DNA from: an uncultured Nitrososphaeraceae archaeon
GTDB taxonomy: Archaea > Thermoproteota > Nitrososphaeria > Nitrososphaerales > Nitrososphaeraceae
Direction: 5' to 3'
Assembly: GCA_963779615.1 (NCBI GenBank)
Contig: CAVZZA010000003.1
Location: 64,001-128,000 of the forward strand
Length of the DNA stretch: 64,000 nt
Numbering within the stretch: position 1 is the stretch's first letter; every line of letters begins with the position of its first letter. The notes under the pieces are model-generated. The model was not told the DNA's origin. It made no database searches and worked only from the letters and a program-made list of their open reading frames with translations. Positions 6,716 through 60,511 of this stretch are shown here, piece by piece. Made by a program: the position numbers and the translations under genes.

Positions 6716-6922
6716 GTTTCTATGTTCTATAAGAAATCCTTACATAAAAAGCCAATCTAATCTTTTTAGCATGGCAGCCTCAATAATATGTTCTAAACCC
6801 AAAAAAATAAAAATTAACAATATATCCTATTACAATATGGCTATAACGTTCCATTACATTTTATTCAAGAAACAATTAAAGAGTCGGTCAGTGTAATTCT
6901 ATATGGAAACCAGTGTATTATA

Positions 6923-7765
6923 ATGGAGTATGCGTATTCTAACGTCTTGGTTAGTACGCAATGGATAAACGACCATTTAAAGGATCCAAAAGTACGAATT
7001 ATAGAGGTTGACTATAATCCCTCCACAAGTTACTTACTCGGTCACATTCCAGGAGCAGTACTCTTTGACTGGAAACTAGAATTGGTTGACTCAACTAAGC
7101 GTGACATAATTTCAAAGGAGGTTTTTGAGGACCTAGTTCAAAAAGCTGGCATAAACAATGAAACCATACTGATTGTTTATGGCGACTTCAAGAACTGGTT
7201 TGCAGCATTTGCCTTCTGGATATTCAAGTATTATGGCTATGGCGATATCAGGTTGATGAATGGTTCACGTAAGAAATGGTTTGAGGAAGACCGGCCATTT
7301 AGTATGGACATTCCGACTTATACAAGAGGGACATTCAAAGCCTCCTCCCCTAATAAAAGCATAAGAGTTTTGATGGACTATGTAAAAGAATCTATTGGTT
7401 CTCAGGGCAGAGTACTGGTTGATGTTAGAACCAATGATGAGTATGATGGAAAAACTTTAGCCCCATCAGAATATTCTTCGGAATACGGTCAGGTCGGTGG
7501 ACATATTCCAGGTGCAGTGAATGTACCTTGGAGTTGGATGGTATATGATGACGGCACCTTCAAGTCTGCAGAAGAGCTAAGGAAAATATATGAATCACAT
7601 AGTGTCACGCCAGATAAGGAAGTCATAACATATTGCGGGATAGGGGAGAGGGCATCTTTTACCTGGTTTGTTCTGACATATCTTTTAGGGTATCCTAATG
7701 TAAAGAGTTACGACGGATCATGGCTTGAGTGGGGAAACAGCCTTGGTAACCCTATTGAAAAGTAA
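6923..7765 (+). CDS. thiosulfate/3-mercaptopyruvate sulfurtransferase (tandem rhodanese)
   Basis: GHIPGA twice, active-site YCGIGERA, C-terminal YDGSWLEWG. Confidence 0.92.
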   Translation: MEYAYSNVLVSTQWINDHLKDPKVRIIEVDYNPSTSYLLGHIPGAVLFDWKLELVDSTKRDIISKEVFEDLVQKAGINNETILIVYGDFKNWFAAFAFWIFKYYGYGDIRLMNGSRKKWFEEDRPFSMDIPTYTRGTFKASSPNKSIRVLMDYVKESIGSQGRVLVDVRTNDEYDGKTLAPSEYSSEYGQVGGHIPGAVNVPWSWMVYDDGTFKSAEELRKIYESHSVTPDKEVITYCGIGERASFTWFVLTYLLGYPNVKSYDGSWLEWGNSLGNPIEK

Positions 7766-7958
7766 GATATATTAGTTAAGGTCACTTTTTCTGAAGTGCT
7801 TTGTGTTTGATTTATATATAATATCATGAAAATGTAAGATACAAATTTTATTGGCCAAAGATACTTAATTTGGTTCTGTTCACTTATAGTGCGTTATTTC
7901 TGGGTGGTCAAAATGGGGCAGTAACTAGATTATATACTATATTGAATAACAGGTATCA

Positions 7959-8114
7959 ATGAGCGATATTATAGATGATGCAACAAAGAAAATAAAAAAC
8001 ACCCAACAAGACTCCAAAGCAAAGGCTGAAACTGCAGAAGACCACGCAGAAGGAAAACCAAGTTCTGAAACACTTAACAAGGCAAAAGAAAAGGCAAAAG
8101 ACGCCCTCACCTAA
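7959..8114 (+). CDS. small hydrophilic LEA/CsbD-like protein (51 aa), paralogue of 39076..39228
   Basis: Hand translation MSDIIDDATKKIKNTQQDSKAKAETAEDHAEGKPSSETLNKAKEKAKDALT; TATA-like TTATATA ~30 nt upstream, T-run after stop. Confidence 0.75.
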   Translation: MSDIIDDATKKIKNTQQDSKAKAETAEDHAEGKPSSETLNKAKEKAKDALT

Positions 8115-8150
8115 TTTTTTTCTATTCATCATTAAGAAGACCAATATTTA

Positions 8151-8543
8151 GTGTGGCAGAAATCAACAACCATCATAACGTATGGAGAATGGATAAACGC
8201 TATCTTAGTTTTTATATCTATTCCATTAACAATCTATTTTGTAAAACTAGAATTCATGGTAAAGGATTTAGAAAAACACCCTTTTCTAGATGGTATTAAA
8301 GAAGAAAATAAACAAGATGCCATAAATGCCTATAAAAAAGAAGGACAATAGGCGATTCAAAAGGAGATAGTTCACAAAATGATTCAACTAAATCCTAATG
8401 AAGTAGAAAAAAGAGACAATTCTGTAGAGAAATTTAGGACAAATCCACTCACTAAACCAAAATCAAAAGAATTAAAACGAATACCAGAAAAGGAAAAACA
8501 ACAAGCTATAGAACAGGCGATATTGCACCTCTATATGGAATAG
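8151..8543 (+). pseudogene. single-TM protein interrupted by an in-frame TAG at 8349-8351
   Basis: Frame stays open after TAG (AIQKEIVHKMIQL...KEKQQAIEQAILHLYME); EGQ*AIQ parallels later KQQAIE, suggesting CAG>TAG. Confidence 0.45.
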
Positions 8544-9070
8544 GGTTGTGATTGGGTGTGATAACAGATTATCCATCTGATAACGAAAGCTTGTGGGAAA
8601 AAATCTTTAAAAATTGAAGTTGTCTCTTTTTAAGGTTTTGTAAAGAAGCAAACCCCAGTTCTGTTGTTTCTTATGTTGTTTAAATCAGTTGTTGGGATTC
8701 AGTTAGTAAGATAAATAACAGGTAATGGTATTGACAAAACGACAAAAAGAAAACTTGACATCAAGAAAAAACATGTTTCCAAATTTTAGTAAAGGTTTAT
8801 ATACCTTTTTCCCCTATAAAAATAATGATAAAAATTAATAATTGTAGATATTGTAATCATGAAGCAGGAGAACATGGTATTTTTAGAGGTTCCGATATTA
8901 ACGAAACACATTCTTGCAATAGATATGATTGTCGTTGTAGTCAATATATAAATTAAATAATTTTTAGGTTAGTCAACCATTTGCCATCCTAACCAAGTTG
9001 ACAGAACCAAATAACATAAATAGTTGTAGACAAAAGCCCATAATCAAAAAATAAGGTGTAGGTTAAGGTT

Positions 9071-10039
9071 GTTTAGTTGCTCAACCCTTGATTAAGCAAC
9101 CGTTTGCAACCTAGGCCAATAAGACGACCAATCCAGCTATGGAAAGACCCGTTGACAGGTTGTCTAGTAGATTACAGATATTGCATCTGATATCCATATC
9201 ACCTACTTTGTATTCAAGAACAATGAATGTTTCTTCCAATCCTTGTTTCAACATATAGTGAGTTTTCTTATTGGGCCATAGCCGATGGGTTTCCAAGGGT
9301 GTGGCTGGTTTTGGTCTAACCCTGGCGTTCCTCCTTGCTTTTGTGCAATGGTAAATACAACTGCCTGCTAGACATTCAAAAATATCATTAATGCCATAGT
9401 CCCCGTCCGCAAATAGCTTACCTGTTATCTTATCATTTGATTTTGCAATATCTTCTGCCTTCAGGCAACACTTTGCCATCATGTAGATGCTCATTGGTTG
9501 CCTTCATCGACAAGGTTTTCTTGCTTTTTACATTTGCTGCAGCATGGATTTTCAGGCATCCTTTTTTCTTATCTTCCGTATTTCGTTCTTCCACTGGCCC
9601 CTGTTTGTTACCCTGATGACAGCGCTGCATATTGCAATTATGACAGGTTGATTGTTGAGTTCTTTGCTACGGTAATCATCATCGTTTATTTTGACACCCT
9701 ACCCGTTTGTTCTTCTGCTTATTGCACTGTAATTGGGGGTTGACGGAACTTTTCCATGAGCATGTCCTTTTGCAATTCCCTCCGTTTGCCGATAGGGAAC
9801 ATGAAAAGTACGCTTTGGAATACCCAAGGGGAAAAAGAAATGTGTTGGGATATGAGATGGTTCGCTCACCAACCTATCTCTGTTCATATCCTTTAGTTCT
9901 TTCCCAGTTGTCAATGACATCAAAATAAATCAGTGTTTCGCCAAGTTTACAAGAGATTGGTTGTGTTCTGACCATTTCACATGGTTCCTTAAAAAATACC
10001 ATCTAAATGCATTTGGAACTGCTAATCATGCAACAAACC
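9071..10039 (-). mobile_element. IS5-family (IS903 group) element, decayed transposase
   Basis: Fragments FHVPYRQTEGI, KIHAAANVKSK, HLHDGK, LFADGDY in several frames; end CATGCAACAAACC resembles TIR of 42120-43119; left end degenerate. Confidence 0.8.
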
Positions 10040-10110
10040 AATTACGCAAGAGATCTAATGTATTTAATATGTGATTCATTAAAACTGTTATATGGGTAGT
10101 GTAAGCTAAA

Positions 10111-10587
10111 ATGGAGATAGGAAACTTTTATAACAAATACAAAGATTATATTCTGTTTAACAAAAATATCATCATTTCGGGGGTGTTTGCATTCTTTGGT
10201 GGAGCCCTATTCACGCAGATATATACCCAATATGATAACAACAATCTTGCCAATTCTCTTACCACCCTCCTAATAGAATATGGGATTTACATCCCACTCT
10301 TTGCGTTTTTATATTATGTGGATAACAGAAAGAGGTATATAGAACCCTCTACAGGAAAGAAGGACCATAGCAAGATAAAGAGTGATATAAAAAAACTAAT
10401 TGCTGCATTTTCCGTCTCCGAGGTTATATTCTCTTTTGCAAAGGTAACCATTCATTATGAATTACTCCAATTTAAGATAGTAGAACCATATCAGGCATCA
10501 ATGATTGGTTCTCTAATAGCATGGGTAATATTTTTAGTATCAATAAACTTGAGTGTAAAGGCCGTGAAACTTTTTCGTTCTAAATGA
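10111..10587 (+). CDS. hypothetical membrane protein (about 4 TM)
   Basis: 158 aa ATG ORF, hydrophobic segments, TTATAT box ~25 nt upstream. Confidence 0.7.
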   Translation: MEIGNFYNKYKDYILFNKNIIISGVFAFFGGALFTQIYTQYDNNNLANSLTTLLIEYGIYIPLFAFLYYVDNRKRYIEPSTGKKDHSKIKSDIKKLIAAFSVSEVIFSFAKVTIHYELLQFKIVEPYQASMIGSLIAWVIFLVSINLSVKAVKLFRSK

Positions 10588-11107
10588 GACCATGCTTTAA
10601 AATACTACGGCATCCAATGTTATCTCGGTTTTTCAATGGACTGTGTTTTGCTTTTTTGTACAATTTATTGTAATATATTATATGAATTGAGGTTTTTCCC
10701 TTGTTGTTTTAGGTCATTGCATAAAAAAAACCAAATAACGAAACTAAATTACTATTGCATGTGGTTCACTTTTTTTGCATTCTTGTTTTCACAAAATCCC
10801 ATTTTAAAGAACAGTTTTTGTAACACAGTGGTGGAGGCAGAGCCGAAATCGATTCTCCAAGAATACCACACTACGCATTATAACAATCAGGTTCCAAGTT
10901 TTTGGTCAAAAGATTGACCTAATTGTGAAATAATTAAATTTAGACATCTTATTTCAGAAGATTTAGAAAAAACAAGAGGTGCGTTAACTAAAACTATTCA
11001 GATGGTTGTATATTTGATAAATTGAGGCTTGCATCATATGATCATCTTCAATTTATGGATATATCCCCAAAGACCACCACCACCATTTCAAGATTCATCA
11101 GTTCCAA

Positions 11108-12664
11108 TCACTTTGATATTGATAGGTTTGTCCTCCTTTTTAAAATGAGCCCCGATGCAATGGATATGGTTGATATCAAAGTAGCTGTTAGAAAGATCAG
11201 GTTGTAAGATAATAATGATGGATATGATCTTCCACCAACTTCATTCACAGAGTCTTGGTATGTTTGCATGAATATTGAGGCAATCACAGGTCCGATTGAA
11301 CTTCCAATTAGCACAATTACAATCGATATACCAACGGATACACCACTAAATTGGTGTGGAGTGTATTGCAACACGATATTAAATGCGCCTACATTTATCA
11401 ATGACAGCCCTGCAGATATCATCACCAAATTAACAGCAATCATGAATTCCGTTGCATGAAAAACAAACAGGACGAAAAAACCAATTGTTGTGATAATGCT
11501 CCCCGCTATTACTGGTATAAAGTTACCAATTTTAGCTACAATGAATCCGGAAGAAGGAGCAAATACCAAAAACACTACCATAAAGGGCAATTGGATATTG
11601 GCACTGGTTATTGCGTCCCCGCCAAATCCAATGGGCGGAGGACTAGTTACTAAAATTGGAATAGTTTGATACACCATAAACATTGTGATACCAAAAGTTA
11701 GAAGAATGATGTTCGTAGGAAGAAGGATTTTATTTGCTATTAAATTAAGTGGGATTAACGGCGTTGGTACTTTCCGCTCTATGACAATAAAAAGGATTGA
11801 GGAGACTATTGTTAATGTGGCTAATGAAACTAAAACAGCAAAAGTATAGGACGAATCAACTGAACCCCTGTTGATATCACTATTAGTATTTGCAAAATAG
11901 GTCAGCGTAAGTAAAAATGAAGTTATTGTTATTGCCAAGGTTACAGTTCCCTTTAGGTCCATGCTATATTCATTACTGTTAACAATTTTTTGCGACTCTG
12001 AGGTGTTCTTTATTGTATGATTGGCATCTATACTTTGCATAAAATCTGCTTCCCCATTTCTTTTTTCCTCCGCTTTTGAGCGGTCATCGTTTTGGACAAA
12101 TTGTTTGATTATTACCCAAAGAATAATAGCAACAGGTATTATAGTAAAAAATGTAGACTGCCATCCGAAATTTTTAATGATAGTGCCACCTATCGCTATG
12201 CCCACTACTGAACCTGCAGCAAACATTGAACTAAATATACCAACACTTATTGCAAGCTTATGTACTGGAAATTGATCTCTTATAATCCCAAATGCTATCG
12301 GAAACATGGATATACCCAAGCCTTGGATAACCCTAGCAGTAAGAAGAACATAGATATTAGTCGATAGCCCACCAAGAACAATTCCTATGATATAGACAAT
12401 AAATATAATCAACACCATTTTCTTTTTGCCATAAACATCAGATAGTTTTCCGGCAATTGGAGTCATTACCGCGCCTGAAATAAGGTATGCCGTAAGTATC
12501 CACGATGAAGTGCTATACGAAATATCAAAATCTTTAATGATCTGGCCAATAGCTGGTATTAACATAGTCTCACCATACATAGTAATTAAAATGGTAGACC
12601 CCAAAATGGCAAGTGTTATCCATGTGGATGCCTGAATTTTTTCAGAAGGTTTTGCCACATTCAT
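11108..12664 (-). CDS. MFS transporter, DHA2 family
   Basis: 518 aa; GKLSDVYGKKK motif A, ARVIQGLG, ~14 TM. Confidence 0.9.
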   Translation of the reverse strand: MNVAKPSEKIQASTWITLAILGSTILITMYGETMLIPAIGQIIKDFDISYSTSSWILTAYLISGAVMTPIAGKLSDVYGKKKMVLIIFIVYIIGIVLGGLSTNIYVLLTARVIQGLGISMFPIAFGIIRDQFPVHKLAISVGIFSSMFAAGSVVGIAIGGTIIKNFGWQSTFFTIIPVAIILWVIIKQFVQNDDRSKAEEKRNGEADFMQSIDANHTIKNTSESQKIVNSNEYSMDLKGTVTLAITITSFLLTLTYFANTNSDINRGSVDSSYTFAVLVSLATLTIVSSILFIVIERKVPTPLIPLNLIANKILLPTNIILLTFGITMFMVYQTIPILVTSPPPIGFGGDAITSANIQLPFMVVFLVFAPSSGFIVAKIGNFIPVIAGSIITTIGFFVLFVFHATEFMIAVNLVMISAGLSLINVGAFNIVLQYTPHQFSGVSVGISIVIVLIGSSIGPVIASIFMQTYQDSVNEVGGRSYPSLLSYNLIFLTATLISTISIASGLILKRRTNLSISK

Positions 12665-38739: not shown

Positions 38740-38949
38740 TTATTCATACATGGTTTTCTCAGACTTGTTTGATCCTTCTTTTGCTTCCTCATAAATTATC
38801 ATTGCAGAGTGATACATCTCATTGTCTTTAAACGTCATAGAATATTTTATATTAATCAAGTTATTCTTGCCAACTTGTTCAAGGTAACTGTTTACGCCTT
38901 TTTCCAAGTTCCCCTCATCGCTTGATTTAAAAATTTTGATTTTTACCAT
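38740..38949 (-). CDS. small Cse60/DUF2758-like protein
   Basis: VKIKIF...E..LE..VN.YL......LINIKYS.....YHSAMIIY pattern. Confidence 0.6.
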   Translation of the reverse strand: MVKIKIFKSSDEGNLEKGVNSYLEQVGKNNLINIKYSMTFKDNEMYHSAMIIYEEAKEGSNKSEKTMYE

Positions 38950-39075
38950 AATTATTAAAGTATTTTGTCTTATTTGAATTTTAAATTTTTGGGTTCTGTT
39001 AACTTGGTTAGGATAATACTTGAGGCTTTATAGCCCTAGTGAGTATATATAAACTATTTTAAACATTATTGACTA

Positions 39076-39228
39076 ATGAATGACTTTGATAAATCCGTAA
39101 AGAAGATGAAAGATGCACAACAAGATGTTGATGCAAAGGTGGAAACTTCACAAGACCATGCAGAAGGAAAACCAAGTTCAGAAACACTGAACAAGGCAAA
39201 AAACAAGATTAAGGATGCACTCTCCTAA
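39076..39228 (+). CDS. small hydrophilic LEA/CsbD-like protein (50 aa), paralogue of 7959..8114
   Basis: Hand translation MNDFDKSVKKMKDAQQDVDAKVETSQDHAEGKPSSETLNKAKNKIKDALS; TATATATAAA ~30 nt upstream, T-run after stop. Confidence 0.75.
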   Translation: MNDFDKSVKKMKDAQQDVDAKVETSQDHAEGKPSSETLNKAKNKIKDALS

Positions 39229-39612
39229 ATTTTTTTAGTTCTGCTCATTCTATAGGTATTATTTTGTGTTTAAAATATAGATAAAATAAAACTTTGAAAT
39301 TTTTAATGATATGTATTTTTGCAGTTACTATCGTACCATTATATGTAAAACCTTTTTTTTATCCTATGGGGTAATTGCCAAAATGGGTTCAAGATCTAAA
39401 ATGCTATTACTCTCATATGCCTACCAAATAGAGTAAAAAACCGCAAGCCAGTCTCTAATCATTTGTTAAGTTTTTCAACAGGTCTAACTGCAAACAATGG
39501 TGTGAATAAGCATGGAGCAAAAGGATGGTAACAAATTAAATTTAAGAATAGCAAAATACACAGCAGGACAGCAGAATTGACAATATGTTATTTCAAAAAA
39601 CAATCAGGCTGT

Positions 39613-41601
39613 TTATTCCCCATTTTTCGCTTTGTCGTCTTTATGCTGGTTATCTGAATTAACGTATATCAAATTTATGAGCAATGGGGATAGTGTGGGG
39701 GGAGATGCCCTAATCTTTTTGGTTGCAATGTTATAGTAATGATCGACTAACTCGTTAAAGTGGTGGATCTGTCTGGCCATTAAACTTATGAAAGAAACTG
39801 CGGTTTGGCATTGTGAAGAAAGATCCTGCTTTTGCCTGTTTAATTCACTCGTTTCTCTCTTTGTTTTTTCCAGTGTCTGCTGTTGTTCTTTTATCGATGA
39901 GTTTATGTTCCCCAATTTTCTCAGATTCTCTATAAATGATTTCCAGTGTTCTGCTCTGTTACTGTTGTTGTTACTGTTACTGACATTTACGGCTTTGCTG
40001 CCCTTGTCTGTGCTGCCTTTGCTGCACTCGCCTTGAGGATCCAACTGTAACTTGCCACTTGCGGTTTCTGTCACCAATTGGCTGATGCTTATGATGTCAC
40101 TTTCGCTTATTCCGTTTTGGAAGAGATAATGCAAGGTTGTGCCTACAAATGGTGCTGATTGCATTGCCAGCCTATTGTTGTTCAGCTCTTGCTCTGCCTT
40201 AAAAAGCTCTTTTCTTTTTTCCTTGACTTTGTCTTCCAACAAAAACTTGTCATGGTAGTTTTCCTCAATGTCCCTTATGAACAAGGACACTGCATCTTGT
40301 GATGATAGGAAATCCTTTCTTGTTCCGGCAATTTCCAAAATGGTGTTCCATATCTGTTTTAGCTCTGTTAGTCCAAAATTCATTGCCTGCAGTTGCCCAT
40401 ACACACCCATCGTTTGCCTGTGCATGCTTACCTGAGATTCTAAATGTGAAACCAGGTTTTGCAAAGAACTTTTTTGTTCAAAGAGTTCATTGACCTCTTT
40501 CTGGTTTTCCGTTATTTGCAATTTGAGGGACAGTGAATTTTTATACGCCCTTATTATTTCGGCTGCGTCATAACCCTTCTCCTTAAAGTCATGGATTAGC
40601 TTGGCTAGTTCCTTTATGCCCTCATCCATGTTAATGTCATAGGTATCCCTTAACACTTTTTTTAGGTCTGCAAATATCTGAAGGTAGGTCATGGTGTTTT
40701 TTTCCCTCTTGTTTGTTATGGCAAGATTCTCCTCTGCCTGAGTCCTTTGCAACTCTAGTTCCTTTATTTCCTCCATTGCCTTTTTTCTGTATTCCTCAGC
40801 CTTGGAGTATTCTTTTTTCATTTGGGCAATACACAAAGAAATTCGGGAAACAAACGGCATTTCAGTTTCATCATTTGGATAGGGGGAGGAAGAGGGGGAG
40901 GCTGTTTGTTTTGATTTGGCATCAGGATGGTTTTCCTTTACCTGCGTGAGAGAGTTAAGACCGTCATCATTATCCTCCCGTGAACTGAAACCTGGTGTTT
41001 TGCCTGTTTTCTGGGGTTGCTGATATTGTGGTTGCCGGGTGGTGGTTGTGATGGTGTTATCCAGTCCACTTGCACTTAGCTTCGGTTGGGCATACCTGTT
41101 TCCATCCTTGTCAAAACCATCATCATCGACATCATAGTTGCCGTTTGGGGAAAAGGGTGACTTGTTTTTGTTGTTGGGGGAAGTGCCGTAAAAGTCAAAC
41201 AAGTCTTTAATCCATGCTGGTACGGTTGAGGGTGCAAGACCTTGCCTTTTGCAGTTCTTATAGACGTCCTCTATAAAGGAGGCGAACTCGTCGTAGTTGC
41301 CCTCGTATTTGTTATCGATGCCATCATCATCACCTTCATGTATGTCAAGTCTTTTCAGTATACCTATCATCCTAAAGCCCTGGGCGCATTGCCCAATCGA
41401 TATCTCCGACTTCCTGACCTTGATCGAAAACTCCCTCAGCGTGTCAATGTCGGGTGTCCCGATTTCTCCTTTCCAGTCGTTTATCAAATAATGCACCTTG
41501 CCTTTTGAGACATTGGTTTCTGAGGCTATTTGGTCCATCGATTTGCCGTTTAGGTAGCCTTGTATCACTAGCGATATGCCGGTTTGTTTTGAACTTGACA
41601 T
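39613..41601 (-). CDS. N-terminal HTH + long coiled-coil protein of unknown function
   Basis: 662 aa; YLNGKSMDQIASETNVSKGKVHYLI HTH, disordered linker, several heptad-rich stretches; no Walker A seen. Confidence 0.8.
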   Translation of the reverse strand: MSSSKQTGISLVIQGYLNGKSMDQIASETNVSKGKVHYLINDWKGEIGTPDIDTLREFSIKVRKSEISIGQCAQGFRMIGILKRLDIHEGDDDGIDNKYEGNYDEFASFIEDVYKNCKRQGLAPSTVPAWIKDLFDFYGTSPNNKNKSPFSPNGNYDVDDDGFDKDGNRYAQPKLSASGLDNTITTTTRQPQYQQPQKTGKTPGFSSREDNDDGLNSLTQVKENHPDAKSKQTASPSSSPYPNDETEMPFVSRISLCIAQMKKEYSKAEEYRKKAMEEIKELELQRTQAEENLAITNKREKNTMTYLQIFADLKKVLRDTYDINMDEGIKELAKLIHDFKEKGYDAAEIIRAYKNSLSLKLQITENQKEVNELFEQKSSLQNLVSHLESQVSMHRQTMGVYGQLQAMNFGLTELKQIWNTILEIAGTRKDFLSSQDAVSLFIRDIEENYHDKFLLEDKVKEKRKELFKAEQELNNNRLAMQSAPFVGTTLHYLFQNGISESDIISISQLVTETASGKLQLDPQGECSKGSTDKGSKAVNVSNSNNNSNRAEHWKSFIENLRKLGNINSSIKEQQQTLEKTKRETSELNRQKQDLSSQCQTAVSFISLMARQIHHFNELVDHYYNIATKKIRASPPTLSPLLINLIYVNSDNQHKDDKAKNGE

Positions 41602-41620
41602 TTATGGTATAGATAATATA

Positions 41621-41691
41621 TGGTCAAGTAGTATTTAAATTCGGTCATTTTGATCAATAAAGCGGTCAAAATAGTCAATTATTCGGTCAAA
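41621..41691 (-). repeat. phased TGACC direct-repeat array with 21-bp period around the TATA box
   Basis: GGTCA at 41622, 41643, 41664, 41685; variants GATCA 41652, AGTCA 41673; TATA (TTTAAATA on -) at 41632-41639. Confidence 0.8.
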
Positions 41692-41729
41692 TATAATGGT
41701 GCTTGGGGATGAGGTGATTATGCTCTGTT

Positions 41730-42095
41730 GGGCAGGGGCCAAAAGACGTATTCCATATGCTAAAACAAAAGAAGGTAAAAAAAGAAAACTGCAACATCCA
41801 TGTCTTGATAAAGCATATAATTCCGAGCCCGAAGAGCAAGCAATTGCAAAAAGAGGATATGTACCACATTTACCGTACAGGAGAAAAAAAGGAGAGGTCA
41901 AGAAAGATACGGAAAAGATCATAAATCGCAAAAAACATCCTGCAAGAAGATGGGTTGTGGAGAGAACCAACTCATGGCACAGCAGGTCCAGAAAGCTGTT
42001 CACATGGTATGAAAAGAAAGCAGAGAGATACCTTGGCTTGGTGCAGCTATCATATGGTATCATAATCTACAGAAAGATAGTTTTGGGATAGGCTC
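41730..42095 (+). mobile_element. IS5-family (IS427-like) 3' fragment, same family as 13432-14371
   Basis: CLDKAY, RWVVERTNSWH, right TIR TTTTGGGATAGGCTC at 42081-42095; left part missing. Confidence 0.85.
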
Positions 42096-42119
42096 TTAAT
42101 TTGCTTAACTGTTTTATGT

Positions 42120-43119
42120 GCTTTGTTGCATAACTAGTAATCAAAAGACTATTTCCATTTGTTTATGCCTTTCCCCTAAGCACGTTATACAAATATACTT
42201 TCATTATCATCTCTTTCACCATGTTTTGAAGCTTGGTAGCAGACACATATTCTCCATAGGTTTTCTTCATAGAAGAGAATGCAGTCTCAGCCATCCATCG
42301 CTTCCCATACCTTCTTTTCTTTTTCCATTTGGGTAGATCATCTGTTGTTTGCAATTTGGCCTCTCTGTTCCTTATCTTGTTGTTTTTGGGTGAGATGATG
42401 GAACTCTTACTTACCCTTATTCCTGGCAGAATGTTTTTCTCTTGAAGACACTTGAAATTCTCATTGCCATTATAGGCCCCATCTGCCAGGACTGTTTTGA
42501 TATTGGCAGCGGCGTTATTTTGCTTTAACATGCGGTCAACCAATCCACACAACACTTTTCCATCATGCACCTTTTCATCAGCCACTTCTAAAGCAAGGAT
42601 TTCCTTGGTCTTTATGTTCACTGCAAAATGTATTTTGAGACAGCCTTTCTTTTTTTAACAAACCACTTGTCCCTTAGCCATTGGCCCCTGTTTGTTACCT
42701 TGATGCCAGTGCTATCTACTGCTATGATAACATCATCATCATCCAATTCACTACTGCTTCTACCACTATCAATGTCAAGGTTGTTTTTCCTTCTGTTGAT
42801 TTGTGAATAGCTGGGATGGCTTGGCAGGTTCTTTCCCGTTGTTGCCTTTATGATCCCTTCTGTTTGCCTATAAGGCAGGTGAAAGTAAACCCTGATGCAA
42901 CCAATAAAAAGAATAAGGGAATTTGGATACCTGTACTTTCTGCCTCCCTTCTTTTCATCCATCTCTTCAACCTCGGTATCACGCCATAAATCCAGAAAGT
43001 CACAGGCAAATAGAATCTCTCCCCTCTTCTTACCATGGACCGGTTATAGGAAGGCCAGTCAGTCAATAATGTTAGTCTAATTTAATCCCAGCTAAATAGA
43101 TTGAGTCATGCAACAAAGC
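42120..43119 (-). mobile_element. IS5-family (IS903 group) element, frameshifted transposase
   Basis: 16-bp TIR GCTTTGTTGCAT(A/G)ACT; DWPSYN.S.VRRGE, PYRQTEG, AVDSTGIK, VHDGK, LADGAY, RWMAETAFS. Confidence 0.9.
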
Positions 43120-49569: not shown

Positions 49570-50234
49570 GGCTCTGTTCACTTAACGAAATCTTATAGCT
49601 TGAAGATGCACAATTTCCTTTGTGCACAGTAGAAACAGAACACCTTCACAATACATTGGTTATGGCCTGTACTTTTATTTTTCAGGACTCTCCTTAAGAA
49701 TAGCCTCTGAAAGGCTGTCATCATGCTTTATCAAGCGAAACCATGTTTCCATCTGGAACTGGATACAATAGCACAACCCAAGGAAGTCGTCCTCAAGTAA
49801 AAGGAGGGTTGAGGAGTTTATTGTTGATGGAACATTGCTTAAGATTGGTTCAGAGTTGGTATGGCTTTGGGTGGCAATTGAGCCTGCCAACAAAGAGATT
49901 CTCTCAATAAGCATATCCAAGGAGAGAAACATGTTTGTGGCCGAGCGTTTCCTGTACCGCCTATTGGAAAAGCATGGGGAGCATCCTGTTTCGACCGATG
50001 GCGGAACATGGTATCCGCAGGCCTGTCAGTTTTTGAAACCAAGGCATCACATGCATTCACCTTATGAGAAAAGCATCATTGAGAGAACAATGCAGTACAT
50101 CAAGGACAGGACGGAAAGCTTTGATGACTATTTTCCATGTAAAAAGAAAAACTGTAAACTCAAGCATGTAAATAATTGGTTGAACCTATTTGCGGATTTG
50201 CATACAAGGGATTATCCATTAAATGAACAGAGCC
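49570..50234 (+). mobile_element. IS6-family element, transposase with in-frame TAG
   Basis: 16-bp TIR GGCTCTGTTCA(C/T)TTAA; 8-bp direct repeat AGTAAAAG at 49562-49569 and 50235-50242; SGLSLR, IWNWIQ*, WLWVAIEP, STDGGTWYP, IIERTMQYIKDR. Confidence 0.93.
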
Positions 50235-50652
50235 AGTAAAAGCATAGTTGGATGTTCATGCAATCAATCCACTCAATAGGTCATCAAAAACTTTATTAAA
50301 AAAAAAGATATGTTTGATTTAACAAAAGTGTTCATAAAAACACTTGTTCAAACATTTTCTAAAAACAAAAAATTTTAGCAAATAAATTAACTAGGTTATG
50401 CCATAATTTTTATTTTTTTATCAATTTCTGATAGAATCCAATCCCTTTTGATAATTGCTTTATGAGGTATAAAGAATTCTACAGATTAACATCTTCAAGC
50501 GTGTGAATTTCTTCGATTACCTGATCAAGTTCAAATATACTCCAAGTAACAGTTTGATAATCAATCGAATCCTTATAATGTATCATTGGCAAGGCAACAA
50601 CAAAGTAAACTCCATGATTTTAAAACAACAAAACTATTGATTCCACTTTATT

Positions 50653-58301: not shown

Positions 58302-58361
58302 TTTGACCATTTTTTGACCATTTTTTGACCAATTTGACCAAAAAATAATAACTATGACCAA
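58302..58361 (+). repeat. phased TGACCA direct-repeat array upstream of HTH-coiled-coil paralogue
   Basis: TGACC at 58304, 58315, 58326, 58335, 58355; TATTATAAA at 58372-58380. Confidence 0.8.
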
Positions 58362-58409: not shown

Positions 58410-60239
58410 TTGAGACATTCAAAACAATTATTGGAATCACAGGTTGTTTCGGATTATTTAAAAGCAAAACCGAGGAACAAAATAGCTGTAGATAATAAAA
58501 CATCTGCAGGAAACGTATCAAACATATTAAAGGATTGGAAAAAAGAATAGGAATACCCAATGTTGAAGAACTGAGAGAATTTGTTGCAGCAGTCAAAAAA
58601 TCCGGTATAACAATTGAACAATGTGTCTAAGGTTTTTAGGGTTGCCCAAATGATGAAAAGATTGGGCATCCCCGTTGATGGCGATGATGATGACAACTGT
58701 AATGACGATAGCCAAAATAACAACAAAGATTTCTATTTCTTTGTAGATGAGATATACTTAAATTGCAAAAATCTAGGCATTCCACCAGATACCATACCTT
58801 CATGGATTAAAGATCTGCTGGATTGTTATAATCTTGACAATACAAACCAACAATCCCTTTCACGGAGTTTAGGTGAGCATGATGATAATTATAATGATGA
58901 TAAAAAAGATCCTTCACTGTTAACCCTAAAAGAGCAGGAATTTTTTACGGGTGGGAACAACAGATCAGGTTCAATCGGAATCAGGAAAACAGATTCCTTC
59001 AATAAAGATTCATCCAATCATTTTGAAACCCATCAATCGGCATCATCGCCTAATAATGTTGAAATACCATTCATCTCCCGGGCATCCAATTTCATTGCAA
59101 CAAAGAAAAAACTATGCGTAAAACTTTATAGATATAAACTGGCCTTAGCAGACGAAGTAAAAGGATTAAAATTACAAAAAGGCAAAGGCAACAGACAATC
59201 TTAATAGCATAATTAAAGAGAAAGTCATGTAATATACTTTATCGAATGGTTTTACAAATTAAAAGAAAAGCTCTGGAACGGGTATTCCATAAGAATAGAA
59301 GATATTGACAGTTTTGCCAAAGTTATTAATGATTTTAAAAACCATAGATATGATGCCTATGAAATCATAAAAGAATACAGCGGTGTGCAATCGGTTAGGG
59401 AAGAAGTGATAATAAAAGGAGGAAGGTTAAACTATCTTCAATGGGAAGAGCAAAAGCTAAATGACAAGATAGCAGCTTTGAGACCTCAACTTGACTATCA
59501 AGCACAGATTGTGAATACATATTCAGAATTGGCGGAAATGAACCTTGGGCTCAAAGAGTTAAAACTACTAATGTCAACCATTACCGAAATAGCACAGGCC
59601 AATAACATCGCCTATGACAAAGCGGTTAGTAAATTCTTTATGGATACTGAAGAACAGTATGATAAAAAACTGGGGTTAGAAAACAAAATAAGTGAAAAAG
59701 TACTGGAGCTTGGGAACATAAATAACAATATCTCAAATTCTCAATTTAGATTGCTATTTTATTCCTCGATAGTGCCAATGTTGACTAATCTTTTCCAAAA
59801 TGGGTTAACTGAAGAAGACATTGTAAATATTAATTCAATATGTTTATCGAATGTTAATAAAATTAAAGTCAATTCAAAAGCGGAAAATAAACAAGACACG
59901 AACAAAACAGAATGCTGGAGGCTATTGAAAGAAGATTTAAAAAAATATGGAGAAATCAGCTTGGCAGCAAGAGAAAAATCAAAGGAAGTTGAAGAAATGG
60001 ATAAAGAAATCCATAATTTAAACAAACAAAAACAGGAGCTCACAAATTATTGCAAAAATGCAAATTCCATTATAAATAATTTAAACAGCAAAATTTCATA
60101 TCTTAATGGATCTATCGATTATCTTGGAAATGAGTTGAGCAATAAAATTAAGGCATTTCCAAGACCCCCACCATTGTTTATTTATTTTATGCATAACAAT
60201 ACAGAAAAATGGGGGGATGGAAAGAATGAAGAAATTTAA
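58410..60239 (+). pseudogene. decayed paralogue of the 39613..41601 HTH-coiled-coil protein
   Basis: LRHSKQ...DYLKAKPRNKIAVDNKTSAGNVSNILKDWK, ELREF, IPSWIKDL, EIPFISR, MNLGLKELK, LFQNGLTEEDI align in order across several frameshifts/stops. Confidence 0.85.
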
Positions 60240-60511
60240 AAAGCAAAATAGAAGTATGTTACCACAGGTATTTGTAAATTATAAAATAAACCAATCGTTT
60301 ATAGATAAAGGCCCGTGCAATAGAGATTTAATATCCGATACCATATTTGGATAAAACAAGATTTAACAATCAAGACATATGGAAGCCACCAATAAATTGC
60401 ATGATCATTGCAATAACCGATCTCAAACATACAAATTAGCAAGGTAAATCACAATGGAATTGCAGATAAGGGATATGTGCATCAAATGATGCATTGACGA
60501 TAACACTATAA

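Follow-up and report, generated by a model that had tools for sequence, protein, structure and literature searches.

The gene of interest lies on the reverse strand of the window, by which we mean the whole 64-kb stretch of DNA that was analysed. Its predicted 662-aa product consists of an N-terminal helix-turn-helix (HTH) domain, a low-complexity linker and a long helical tail, and an array of short direct repeats occupies its promoter (Table 1). This division of the protein had been proposed in the initial annotation, together with the lack of an ATPase motif, and the open reading frame, the AF2 models, a heptad test and a regular-expression search, which finds neither a Walker A nor a Walker B motif in the 662 residues, all agree with it. 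The gene is the sole uninterrupted copy among the six long-family loci of this genome. Its neighbours in the window are metabolic or accessory genes and IS fragments, and IS fragments adjoin the array.

Table 1. Features of the window gene, its promoter and the paralogue in the same window (positions are those of the window).
Feature	Position	Strand	Basis
Gene for HTH/linker/helical-tail protein, 662 aa	39613..41601	-	ATG start; ORF reading
N-terminal DNA-binding domain (putative), residues 1-139	41185..41601	-	AF2 N-domain model, Pfam, invariant columns
Low-complexity linker, probably disordered, residues 140-249	40855..41184	-	pLDDT, composition, alignment
C-terminal all-helical domain, residues 250-662	39616..40854	-	Full model and heptad test
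TATA-like box, TTTAAATA on the coding strand, -38..-31	41632..41639	-	Sequence
Putative operator array	41622..41689	-	Motif positions, shuffles, spacing
Array of the pseudogene paralogue, TGACC x5, spacings 11, 11, 9, 20	58304..58359	+ (its coding strand)	Motif positions
Diverged paralogue, pseudogene	58410..60245	+	Six in-frame stops (TGA, TAG, TAA)

In the AF2 model of residues 1-145 (pLDDT 77.5) the HTH helices span residues 22-29 and 33-47, the second of which is the predicted recognition helix and bears H37 and Y38; residues 102-139 make up a second conserved two-helix module with F109, Y114 and C117. The HTH of this protein is sub-threshold in Pfam (HTH_28 at 12.3 bits with a cut-off of 25, Sigma70_r4_2 at 14.1 bits with a cut-off of 25.7), and among 27 aligned N-domains HTH_23 is matched in nine, HTH_28 in eight and HTH_Tnp_1 in one at E ≤ 0.01. 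Residues 136-249 have pLDDT values below 50 in the full-length model and are rich in S, P, D, T and N, and the linker varies in length among homologues and is unalignable. The tail contains three long predicted helices (250-321, 346-406 and 549-627) with small conserved helical modules between them (full model, pLDDT 57.5). One heptad register is kept in each long helix, the observed score being reached by 1, 6 and 0 of 500 shuffles respectively, and the invariant columns of the tail include D338, F339, Y353, E423, I424 and W553. Mean column identity in the alignment of 28 homologues (A1) is 48%. A homodimer prediction for two copies of residues 246-662 scored 0.05 against a mark of 0.42, which, with the controls not folded, speaks neither for nor against oligomerisation. 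In a soil metatranscriptome run (X1, 6% of sampled words) one 221-nt contig lies on 40619-40838 (one inserted base, 0 letters otherwise different) and a 41-nt piece falls in an IS fragment, a total too small to bear on transcription, transcription start or habitat. An Rfam scan of 38900-42200 at E ≤ 0.1 found no RNA family.

The family is undescribed. It is confined to Nitrososphaeria and has undergone strong expansion in the genus to which this genome belongs. It comprises 778 representative clusters at E ≤ 0.001, and every named one is annotated as hypothetical. The protein has no match in curated families, solved structures, or plasmid and virus records. A search of PDB sequences with the A1 profile (hmmsearch) gave 0 matches at E ≤ 1, and Foldseek against the PDB returned nothing at E ≤ 0.001 for either the full or the N-domain model, the latter having only generic LuxR/GerE-type HTH matches at E > 0.5. 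ESM Atlas yielded no usable match to residues 246-662, and NCBIfam, PHROGs and PADLOC gave only coiled-coil or HTH noise, far under the NCBIfam cut-offs. A literature search on Nitrosocosmicus helix-turn-helix coiled-coil proteins turned up no description of the family, and none is given in the passages of PMC11559005 and PMC6563490 reached by term look-up; the supplementary iMGE gene lists of the latter could mention relatives.

The promoter array is highly regular. As the initial annotation had reported, GGTCA occurs on the forward strand at 41622, 41643, 41664 and 41685, in exact 21-bp steps; GGTCA-N16-GGTCA has three matches in the window where 0.03 are expected, and at least three were seen in 0 of 100 dinucleotide shuffles. 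On the coding strand these are TGACC sites at -88, -67, -46 and -25 relative to the ATG. A second 21-bp-phased pair, at 41652 and 41673, is present as claimed, but as the one-mismatch variants GATCA and AGTCA and not as the exact motif; each lies 9 bp from a GGTCA, and they read as weaker half-sites on the coding strand (TGATC at -55, TGACT at -76). Successive spacings are therefore 12, 9, 12, 9 and 21, with the alternating 12 and 9 making up the 21-bp unit. The TATA-like box does lie between two of the sites, the perfect TGACC copies at -46 and -25, and it occupies the expected place of the proximal unit's weak half-site. Most sites are upstream of the TATA box.

There are 10 family loci in this genome, six of them of the long family, and all six of these have a same-strand array 21-69 nt upstream. 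Five of the six copies are broken, and the function is thus dispensable copy by copy. One broken copy is the paralogue 17 kb from the window gene (58410-60206 on the forward strand, 28% identity over 654 columns), a pseudogene as judged from its in-frame stops of all three kinds; the TGACC array noted earlier in front of it is real, but it was not acquired independently and was co-inherited with the gene. DNA similarity among the paralogous loci is restricted to the gene and ~100 bp upstream. The window copy and C3:561278 are sister rows in the tree and represent a recent intragenomic duplicate, with similarity extending also ~310 bp downstream. The left end of this similarity was considered as a sign of mobility and rejected: an IS fragment inserted in the window copy lies exactly at this sharp boundary, which is therefore uninformative on mobility.

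Promoters of this genome do not in general carry such arrays, and comparable non-coding arrays are otherwise rare. Among 37 motif clusters, nine are at family genes, six are orphan arrays with the same spacing and no detectable family gene within 1.5-2.5 kb, and the others are coding repeats or irregular. Equal occurrence before unrelated genes, which the initial annotation had listed as evidence against its proposal, is thus not what is seen, and the orphan arrays indicate that arrays can exist or persist without an adjacent gene.

The same organisation recurs in other genomes of the genus (apparently Ca. Nitrosocosmicus) of this soil ammonia oxidiser. We compared 28 loci with a placed start, five from this genome and 23 from other genomes of the genus; four were left out of the spacing count, one at a contig end (L018) and three whose start could not be placed (L010, L019 and L027). 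At least three same-strand sites lie within -150..-1 in 24 of the 28 loci, so that homologues do carry the upstream arrays whose lack would have counted against the earlier proposal; two or fewer are present in L030, L033, L037 and L042, and on the reverse strand each locus of the same set has the motif once at most. For L034, L035 and L037 the counted core, GAAC, was picked after viewing the sequences. Adjacent spacings are 9 (42 times), 12 (28), 21 (11) and 33 (three), with 10, 11 and 13 together accounting for five, and the all-pair spacings peak at 21 (51 pairs), 30, 33, 42 and 63. TATA-like elements are present at -32..-39 in 11 further loci of the 28, and in seven loci a promoter-proximal site at -19..-26 lies directly 3' of such an element. 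Among distant relatives in other genera and families (profile A3), direct-repeat arrays judged by eye are present in 7 of 10, with no clear array in L052, L053 and L061. With all six local long-family loci, 24 of the 28 genus loci and similarity confined to the gene and its immediate upstream DNA, these comparisons favour the earlier proposal of a one-gene cis/trans module in which motif and gene travel together, as far as sequence can tell.

Core motifs differ between paralogues of one genome, being TGACC or TGACGG here and TGAAC or TGACT elsewhere. When the core labels are placed on the N-domain tree they require 12 changes, compared to a shuffled mean of 21.5, and 0 of 200 shuffles are as low. 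The cores also follow the recognition helix, as seen in 44 rows (42 distinct loci) with residues 37-38 read from the alignment. Helix residues HY accompany TGACC in 8 of 8 and FN accompany TGAAC in 3 of 3, whereas SN is found with TGACG in 15, with TGACC in two exceptions (L011 and L016) and with none in three. Most simply, these differences by clade and helix residues suggest that each protein reads its own array. Because gene and array are linked and duplicate together, the clade-specific motifs follow partly from co-inheritance.

From this anatomy and its conservation, and from the way motif and recognition helix vary together, we infer that the window protein is, on balance, a self-binding, cooperatively assembling autoregulator, and possibly also a DNA scaffold. 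The N-terminal HTH would read a 5-6-bp core, TGACC in the window gene, and a coiled-coil dimer would place its two DNA-binding domains on a pair of direct half-sites with 9-bp spacing. Dimers would follow one another every 21 bp, or two helical turns, on the same DNA face and bind cooperatively through their long helical tails, and the flexible linker of ~110 residues could allow a symmetric coiled coil to engage sites arranged head to tail. A filled array would span roughly -90 to -20, including the TATA flanks and the site between TATA and start, and through this occupation of its own promoter the protein would control its own transcription. Repression at high occupancy is the most likely sign of such autoregulation; activation is also possible from archaeal sites upstream of a TATA box.

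A bolder and rather doubtful extension is that these proteins are a mutually orthogonal, self-addressed DNA-organising family of archaea, originating from integrated elements and forming filaments or bridges on private arrays, with arrays that stand at dead copies or as orphans acting as additional chromosomal anchors for the surviving paralogue. By analogy with KfrA, RacA and ParB, each paralogue might nucleate on its own 21-bp-phased array, and polymerisation or bridging would be the part of the coiled coil. Tentatively, the adjacency of integrase and ParA genes would have survived in some Nitrosopumilaceae-like genomes. The arrays would then be structural landmarks, either centromere-like or domain anchors, beyond their use as operators.

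A reading in which the module serves partition or maintenance of a mobile element, the array being centromere- or iteron-like, the protein an adaptor for a ParA-type motor or for replication, and the chromosomal copies relics, is unlikely. The initial annotation had offered segregation or maintenance of an integrative element as one example, along with a chromosome organiser, and had named iterons and partition centromeres together with autoregulatory operators as its models. Phased repeats next to an HTH/coiled-coil gene do resemble centromere-binding proteins and accessory partition proteins of the KfrA type, as the latter are presented in PMC7783346. At this locus the comparison finds no support. 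There is no tRNA in the 64-kb window, no integrase or ParA nearby, and IMG/VR (by pattern scan), PLSDB and INPHARED yielded no relatives; none of the three integrase and four ParA-like matches of this genome is within ~60 kb of any of the 10 family loci, the nearest ParA-like one being about that far away. These loci have no recurrent neighbour in common, and the array runs across the TATA region of its own gene in the fashion of an operator. The many broken copies and the IS fragments beside the window array are compatible with relics of an element, and the integrative-element idea retains some footing elsewhere. Distant relatives were examined at 16 loci, with flanks of 4.5-20 kb, and only three have an integrase-like frame nearby (G139, G170 and G126) and only one a ParA. 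In G139 (locus L064, which has no tRNA) the family gene and the gene for a ParA-like ATPase (AAA_31, 100 bits) belong to one same-strand cluster, and the family gene is 1.4 kb from a tyrosine integrase (29.8 bits, cut-off 27.1). In G170, of the same genus, a family remnant is next to the same integrase (81% identity), the distances in these two genomes being 1-1.5 kb, and within that genus the family occurs sporadically (4 of 47 genomes); in G126 the integrase-like frame is at 6.4 kb. A conserved downstream partner gene was also sought among the distant relatives and rejected: their overlapping ORFs of 130-160 aa are only 16-21% identical between lineages, with one orthologous pair alike (L065/L067), they match no Pfam family, and no such recurrent ORF is present in this genome.

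There is also a small chance that the arrays are bound by another factor, either a shared regulator or a paralogue, and are mere promoter architecture, with the encoded protein acting elsewhere. The orphan arrays would fit such a factor, a single intact HY-type protein could serve the TGACC arrays of the broken copies, and the link of each protein to its own array is drawn from comparisons of sequence. A common factor is harder to reconcile with cores that differ among paralogues of the same genome and track N-domain clade and helix residues, or with a pairing of gene and array that extends, with new motifs, to other families of the class. Finally, a selfish one-gene mobile or duplicative module, with repeats that serve as recombination or end-binding sites like transposon ends, is highly improbable. 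In its favour are the matches to the transposase-type HTH_23, HTH_28 and HTH_Tnp_1, the multiple copies with many pseudogenes, the recent duplicate and the short extent of inter-locus similarity. Against it, no catalytic domain of any kind was found, the array is one-sided, no terminal inverted repeats or target duplications were seen, and the left boundary, which coincides with an IS fragment, is uninformative; counterparts of several paralogue lineages in the genomes of other species point to old vertical paralogy as well.

The autoregulator model is of interest in that, to our knowledge, hardly any transcription factor or DNA-organising protein has been characterised in ammonia-oxidising archaea, for which genetic tools are also few. 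Here the predicted binding site is legible from the genome, with half-sites 9 bp apart and units 21 bp apart, and the natural specificity variants TGACC, TGACG and TGAAC correlate with two recognition-helix residues. The family thus lends itself to tests of protein-DNA recognition and archaeal promoter switching by TATA-flanking arrays, and it may yield orthogonal repressor-operator pairs. If the coiled coil also builds filaments or bridges, the family would be the counterpart of plasmid KfrA on archaeal chromosomes, and the integrase link in distant relatives would bear on the domestication of mobile-element maintenance genes.

Several known systems share parts of this arrangement. Centromere-binding adaptors (ParR/parC, ParB/parS, and the archaeal AspA and SegB) use repeats phased by about one helical turn beside the binder's gene, coat these arrays cooperatively and are frequently autoregulated. 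The window protein departs from them in having no ParB/Srx-like or RHH-type domain (Pfam, NCBIfam), and, unlike ParB systems, the 10 loci here have no adjacent motor NTPase, a ParA-like neighbour being found in one distant relative only. Iteron-type Rep initiators have direct repeats phased at ~21-22 bp beside the gene of an autoregulating DNA-binding protein; in contrast, the window protein has no Rep family or winged-helix Rep domain (Pfam, NCBIfam), neither an AT-rich unwinding element nor replication genes are nearby, and at 10 loci scattered over the chromosome the arrays cover the TATA box of their own gene. RacA of Bacillus subtilis, which bridges DNA to another structure, shares the HTH and long coiled coil, but its many short sites are inverted-repeat motifs spread around the origin region, whereas the array here is private, of direct repeats and at the gene's own promoter. 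Transposases of the HTH_23/HTH_28 type have DDE, serine or tyrosine catalytic families behind the HTH, in place of which the C-terminal 410 residues here are predicted to be helical and match no catalytic family, the only matches being of HTH type. Coiled-coil ATPases of the SMC, JetC or LmuB kind have Walker A/B heads, which this protein lacks, and its PADLOC/NCBIfam matches are confined to the coiled-coil region and fall far short of the NCBIfam cut-offs.

Plasmid KfrA comes nearest among known systems, the likeness being one of architecture alone, with no relationship in sequence. KfrA of plasmid RA3 has an N-terminal HTH and a self-associating alpha-helical tail, represses itself via five 9-nt repeats around its own promoter, acting as a strong autoregulator, and needs three or more repeats for tight binding, as given in PMC7783346. 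KfrA proteins are classified there by secondary structure, an HTH followed by an almost entirely alpha-helical coiled-coil tail that lacks an ATPase (PMC7783346), and the predictions for the window protein (AF2, heptad test, no Walker motifs) have this form; the KfrA Pfam family is absent for the protein at E ≤ 1 and for the 27 N-domains at E ≤ 0.01. The KfrA proteins of RA3 (IncU) and of RK2 and R751 (IncP) and the window protein are alike in the N-terminal HTH, the very long helical tail and the lack of an ATPase, and iterated short repeats cover the gene's own core promoter, with binding and autorepression known for KfrA only. KfrA belongs to a conjugative-plasmid stability module beside partition genes of the IncC/KorB type, whereas the family here occurs in multiple copies on archaeal chromosomes, its specificities diverge and it has no partition neighbours. 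A predicted disordered linker of 110 residues separates DNA-binding domain and tail here, unlike in KfrA, and the sites are 5-6-bp cores that alternate at 9 and 12 bp in one orientation, where those of KfrA are adjacent 9-nt repeats in two orientations.

The 662-aa protein is encoded by a minus-strand frame whose upstream region was described in the initial annotation as carrying GGTCA at exact 21-bp steps. This is confirmed: the motif lies on the plus strand upstream of the ATG at 41622, 41643, 41664 and 41685, and the phased pattern matches three times in the window against 0.03 expected, a number reached in none of 100 shuffles. The second phased pair (41652 and 41673) is also present, but its sites are one-mismatch variants and not perfect copies. 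The coding-strand order is TGACC (-88), TGACT (-76), TGACC (-67), TGATC (-55), TGACC (-46), TTTAAATA (-38 to -31) and TGACC (-25), with 12, 9, 12, 9 and 21 bp between successive sites. Each perfect site is the downstream partner in a 9-bp-spaced pair, the pairs repeat every 21 bp, and a TATA-like box occupies the expected position of the last pair's weak half-site. One soil metatranscriptome run (X1) contains a 221-nt contig that aligns to 40619-40838 within the gene, free of substitutions but with a single inserted base; one match of this kind is not sufficient for calling the gene expressed. About 310 bp 3' of the stop codon are conserved with the closest paralogue; they contain no ORF of at least 50 aa and no Rfam match, and may be a 3'-UTR/terminator region or else some small feature, not yet recognised, that was duplicated along with the gene.

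The genome of the window (G000; 3.17 Mb, 5 contigs) contains six long-family loci, all with a same-strand array 21-69 nt upstream. The window copy is the sole uninterrupted frame; the other five carry stops or frameshifts, and the second copy in the window is a pseudogene with six internal stops. Spacing was analysed in 28 loci with a placed start codon (5 from G000 and 23 from other genomes), leaving out L018, which lies at a contig end, and three loci of uncertain start whose arrays are nonetheless visible (L010, L019 and L027). At least three cores fall within -150 to -1 in 24 of the 28 (two in three loci, one in another), with GAAC counted as a core in L034, L035 and L037 after the sequences had been viewed; reverse-strand cores number 0-1 per locus. 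Adjacent cores are nearly all spaced by 9 (42 times), 12 (28), 21 (11) or 33 bp (3), which gives the rule of direct half-sites 9 bp apart recurring every two helical turns, and all-pair distances peak at 21, 30, 33, 42 and 63. Seven loci have an extra site at -19 to -26, directly downstream of a TATA-like element. With arrays at every long-family locus of G000 and at least three cores in most of the 28, motif and gene do travel together as proposed, and the view of a one-gene cis/trans module is well supported by comparison of the loci.

Coordinates of the loci, arrays and neighbouring features (G, genome; C, contig; L, family locus with flanks)
Feature	Location	Strand	Remark
662-aa protein ORF	window 39613..41601	minus
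Conserved 3' region	window 39300-39612
Closest paralogue	G000 C3:561278-563234
Second window copy	window 58410-60245
DDE transposase fragments	window 41696-42091, 42163-42962, 49835-50239	plus, minus, plus	DDE_Tnp_1_2, DDE_Tnp_1/DDE_Tnp_1_5, IS240-type
Short-family gene	G000 C3:194249-195082	minus
Short-family gene	G000 C3:827446-827874	minus
Short-family gene	G000 C5:260783-261589	minus
Short-family gene	G000 C5:127363-127786	plus
Short-family arrays	G000 C3:195186-195223, C3:827979-828111, C5:126999-127264
11-bp arrays by short-family genes	G012:C1:2088673-2088754, G015:C1:1520051-1520165, G029:C1:1341530-1341554
Orphan arrays	G000 C1:321769-321845, C3:966239-966273, C5:805726-805760, C3:1103752-1103786, C1:527125-527162, C1:84426-84474
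19-bp tandem	G000 C3:380760-381163	minus	22 copies
19-bp tandem	L044 (G011:C5:133522-137553)		at least 11 copies
TGACG minisatellites	G000 C3:22438-22872, C3:502475-503172, C5:810521-810644, others		in large ORFs
Integrase cluster	L064 (G139:C1:1108500-1128400) 6721-12463
Integrase by family remnant	L076 (G170:C12) 9759-11785

Arrays do not occur equally before unrelated genes in G000. All 37 clusters of at least three same-strand TGAC[CG] motifs with gaps of at most 35 bp were sorted: nine lie just upstream of nine of the ten family loci (long and short families), six share the 9/12 or 11-bp spacing but stand as orphans without a long ORF, one is a 19-bp tandem, and 21 are irregular triples or coding repeats inside long open reading frames, for the most part with a period divisible by 3. 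The arrays are not a general promoter feature of this genome. No family gene or remnant was found within 1.5-2.5 kb of the five orphan arrays profiled, and the orphans may be either additional binding sites or what is left of copies since lost; one (C1:527125) lies ~9 kb from an integrase match (C1:517644). The 19-bp tandem is built of a TGACC-containing unit; an integrase-like frame lies 5.6 kb away, and there is no family gene in the vicinity. L044 also has a 19-bp tandem, in which each unit contains two TGACGG cores and which immediately precedes a 595-aa family gene that is intact. The long in-frame TGACG minisatellites (periods 6, 12, 15, 27 and 30 nt) are low-complexity repeats in coding sequence that have no relation to the family arrays, and must be excluded from genome-wide motif scans.

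Searches with the 662-aa protein found the protein family in all 33 other genomes of the genus and the single genome of a second genus, with 1-22 match pieces per positive genome. They gave no match in two genomes from two further genera of the taxonomic family, nor in the 24 genomes searched from the rest of the order. In-frame stops interrupt about a quarter of 150 rows counted among the matches listed. At E<=0.001, a full HMMER scan gave 778 representative clusters. Database relatives that carry a name are 'hypothetical protein' entries of Candidatus Nitrosocosmicus, and the family is undescribed in the literature searched. The N-domain profile (A3) has a wider reach, matching 18 of 201 genomes from the class, including a second genus of the same family (3/3), a genus of another family (4/47) and two further families. 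The same N-domain occurs in a shorter protein of ~240-280 aa with a short coiled coil, at four loci in G000. Its arrays follow a different rule from that of the long family, being perfect 11-bp tandem repeats on the opposite strand ~100 nt upstream, with units GGTCAgatggc (x4), GGTCAaatggt (x11), GGTCAgatgat (x25) and the variant ccgtccatttg (x5), and such arrays adjoin short-family genes in three more genomes. The perfect repeats and their varying copy number (4, 11, 25) suggest slippage-driven change.

Pfam matches to the 662-aa protein are HTH domains only, all sub-threshold; HTH_23 and HTH_28 are matched by nine and eight of 27 aligned N-domains (E<=0.01). An AF2 model built from the N-domain alignment (pLDDT 77.5) has seven helices, those at 22-29 and 33-47 forming the HTH; Foldseek relates it to generic LuxR/GerE-type HTH domains only, at E>0.5. 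The full-length model (pLDDT 57.5) is all-alpha, with an unstructured segment (136-249) and long helices at 250-321, 346-406 and 549-627, each holding a single heptad register (matched by 1, 6 and 0 of 500 shuffles). The protein lacks Walker A and Walker B motifs and has no sequence relative in the PDB and no family in NCBIfam, PHROGs or PADLOC; an Atlas search gave no lead.

Paralogues of one genome have different cores, with four TGACC and two TGACGG loci in G000, and TGAAC and TGACT cores occur in other genomes. In a maximum likelihood N-domain tree of 44 rows, representing 42 distinct loci (L024=L062, L037=L047), core type is clade-specific: it changes 12 times, where shuffling gives 21.5 changes on average (0/200 shuffles as low), and starred branches require that TGACC and TGACG each arose at least twice. 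Residues 37-38 of the recognition helix sort with the core: HY with TGACC (8/8), FN with TGAAC (3/3), and SN with TGACG in 15, TGACC in two and none in three. Because gene and array are linked and co-inherited this sorting is co-variation and no proof of contact, but it is what self-recognition predicts, and one common outside factor acting at all arrays is hard to reconcile with a core that follows both clade and helix. The family offers an unusually explicit, testable recognition code.

Autoregulation by binding of the protein to its own array is, in our view, fairly probable. What is observed is limited to the sequence facts, and from them we infer the following steps. The HTH would read the 5-6-bp core, and a coiled-coil dimer would set two domains onto a 9-bp-spaced direct pair, with head-to-tail binding permitted by the flexible linker. 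Dimers 21 bp apart would share one DNA face and contact each other via their tails, filling the array cooperatively, and a filled array on both sides of the TATA box should exclude or trap initiation factors, giving negative feedback.

The alternative that the array represents iterons, a centromere or part of an integrative element is unsupported here. No tRNA lies in the window, all three integrase and four ParA-like matches of G000 are ~60 kb or more from every family locus, and the ten family loci have no common neighbour except widespread multi-copy families; there is thus no sign of an integrative element or partition system here. IMG/VR (pattern-based scan), PLSDB and INPHARED contain no relatives of the family. 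Both window copies are flanked by glyoxalases, hydrolases, an NHL-repeat protein, a histidine kinase, DUF72, a luciferase-like oxidoreductase and similar genes, and by IS transposase fragments, the first of which begins 7 bp past the distal site of the array, so that an IS insertion has replaced the sequence upstream of the array. Elsewhere, in G139, a 500-aa family gene with ATGAAC repeats upstream is clustered on one strand with a ParA-like ATPase, and a tyrosine integrase is 1.4 kb away; a 359-aa unknown and an overlapping 133-aa ORF also belong to this compact cluster. It is a candidate small integrated element, and its integrase recurs in G170 (81% identity) beside a family remnant. The 20 kb of the G139 locus contain no tRNA. 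An integrase-like frame is also 6.4 kb from a family locus in G126, and with integrase or integrase-like neighbours in these three genomes an origin of the family on integrated elements is possible; at the remaining 13 of the 16 distant loci, tblastn with the G139 proteins found neither integrase nor ParA-like frame.

The closest experimentally studied system to the proposed autoregulator is KfrA of plasmid RA3, described in PMC7783346 as a strong autorepressor with an accessory role in plasmid stability, whose operator consists of five repeats of 9 nt that surround the motifs of its own promoter and whose binding is lost with two repeats. The general principle is already known from plasmids. 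The archaeal family is like KfrA in architecture and logic, but differs in sequence, host domain, genomic setting and site spacing, and so is not classed as a KfrA member.
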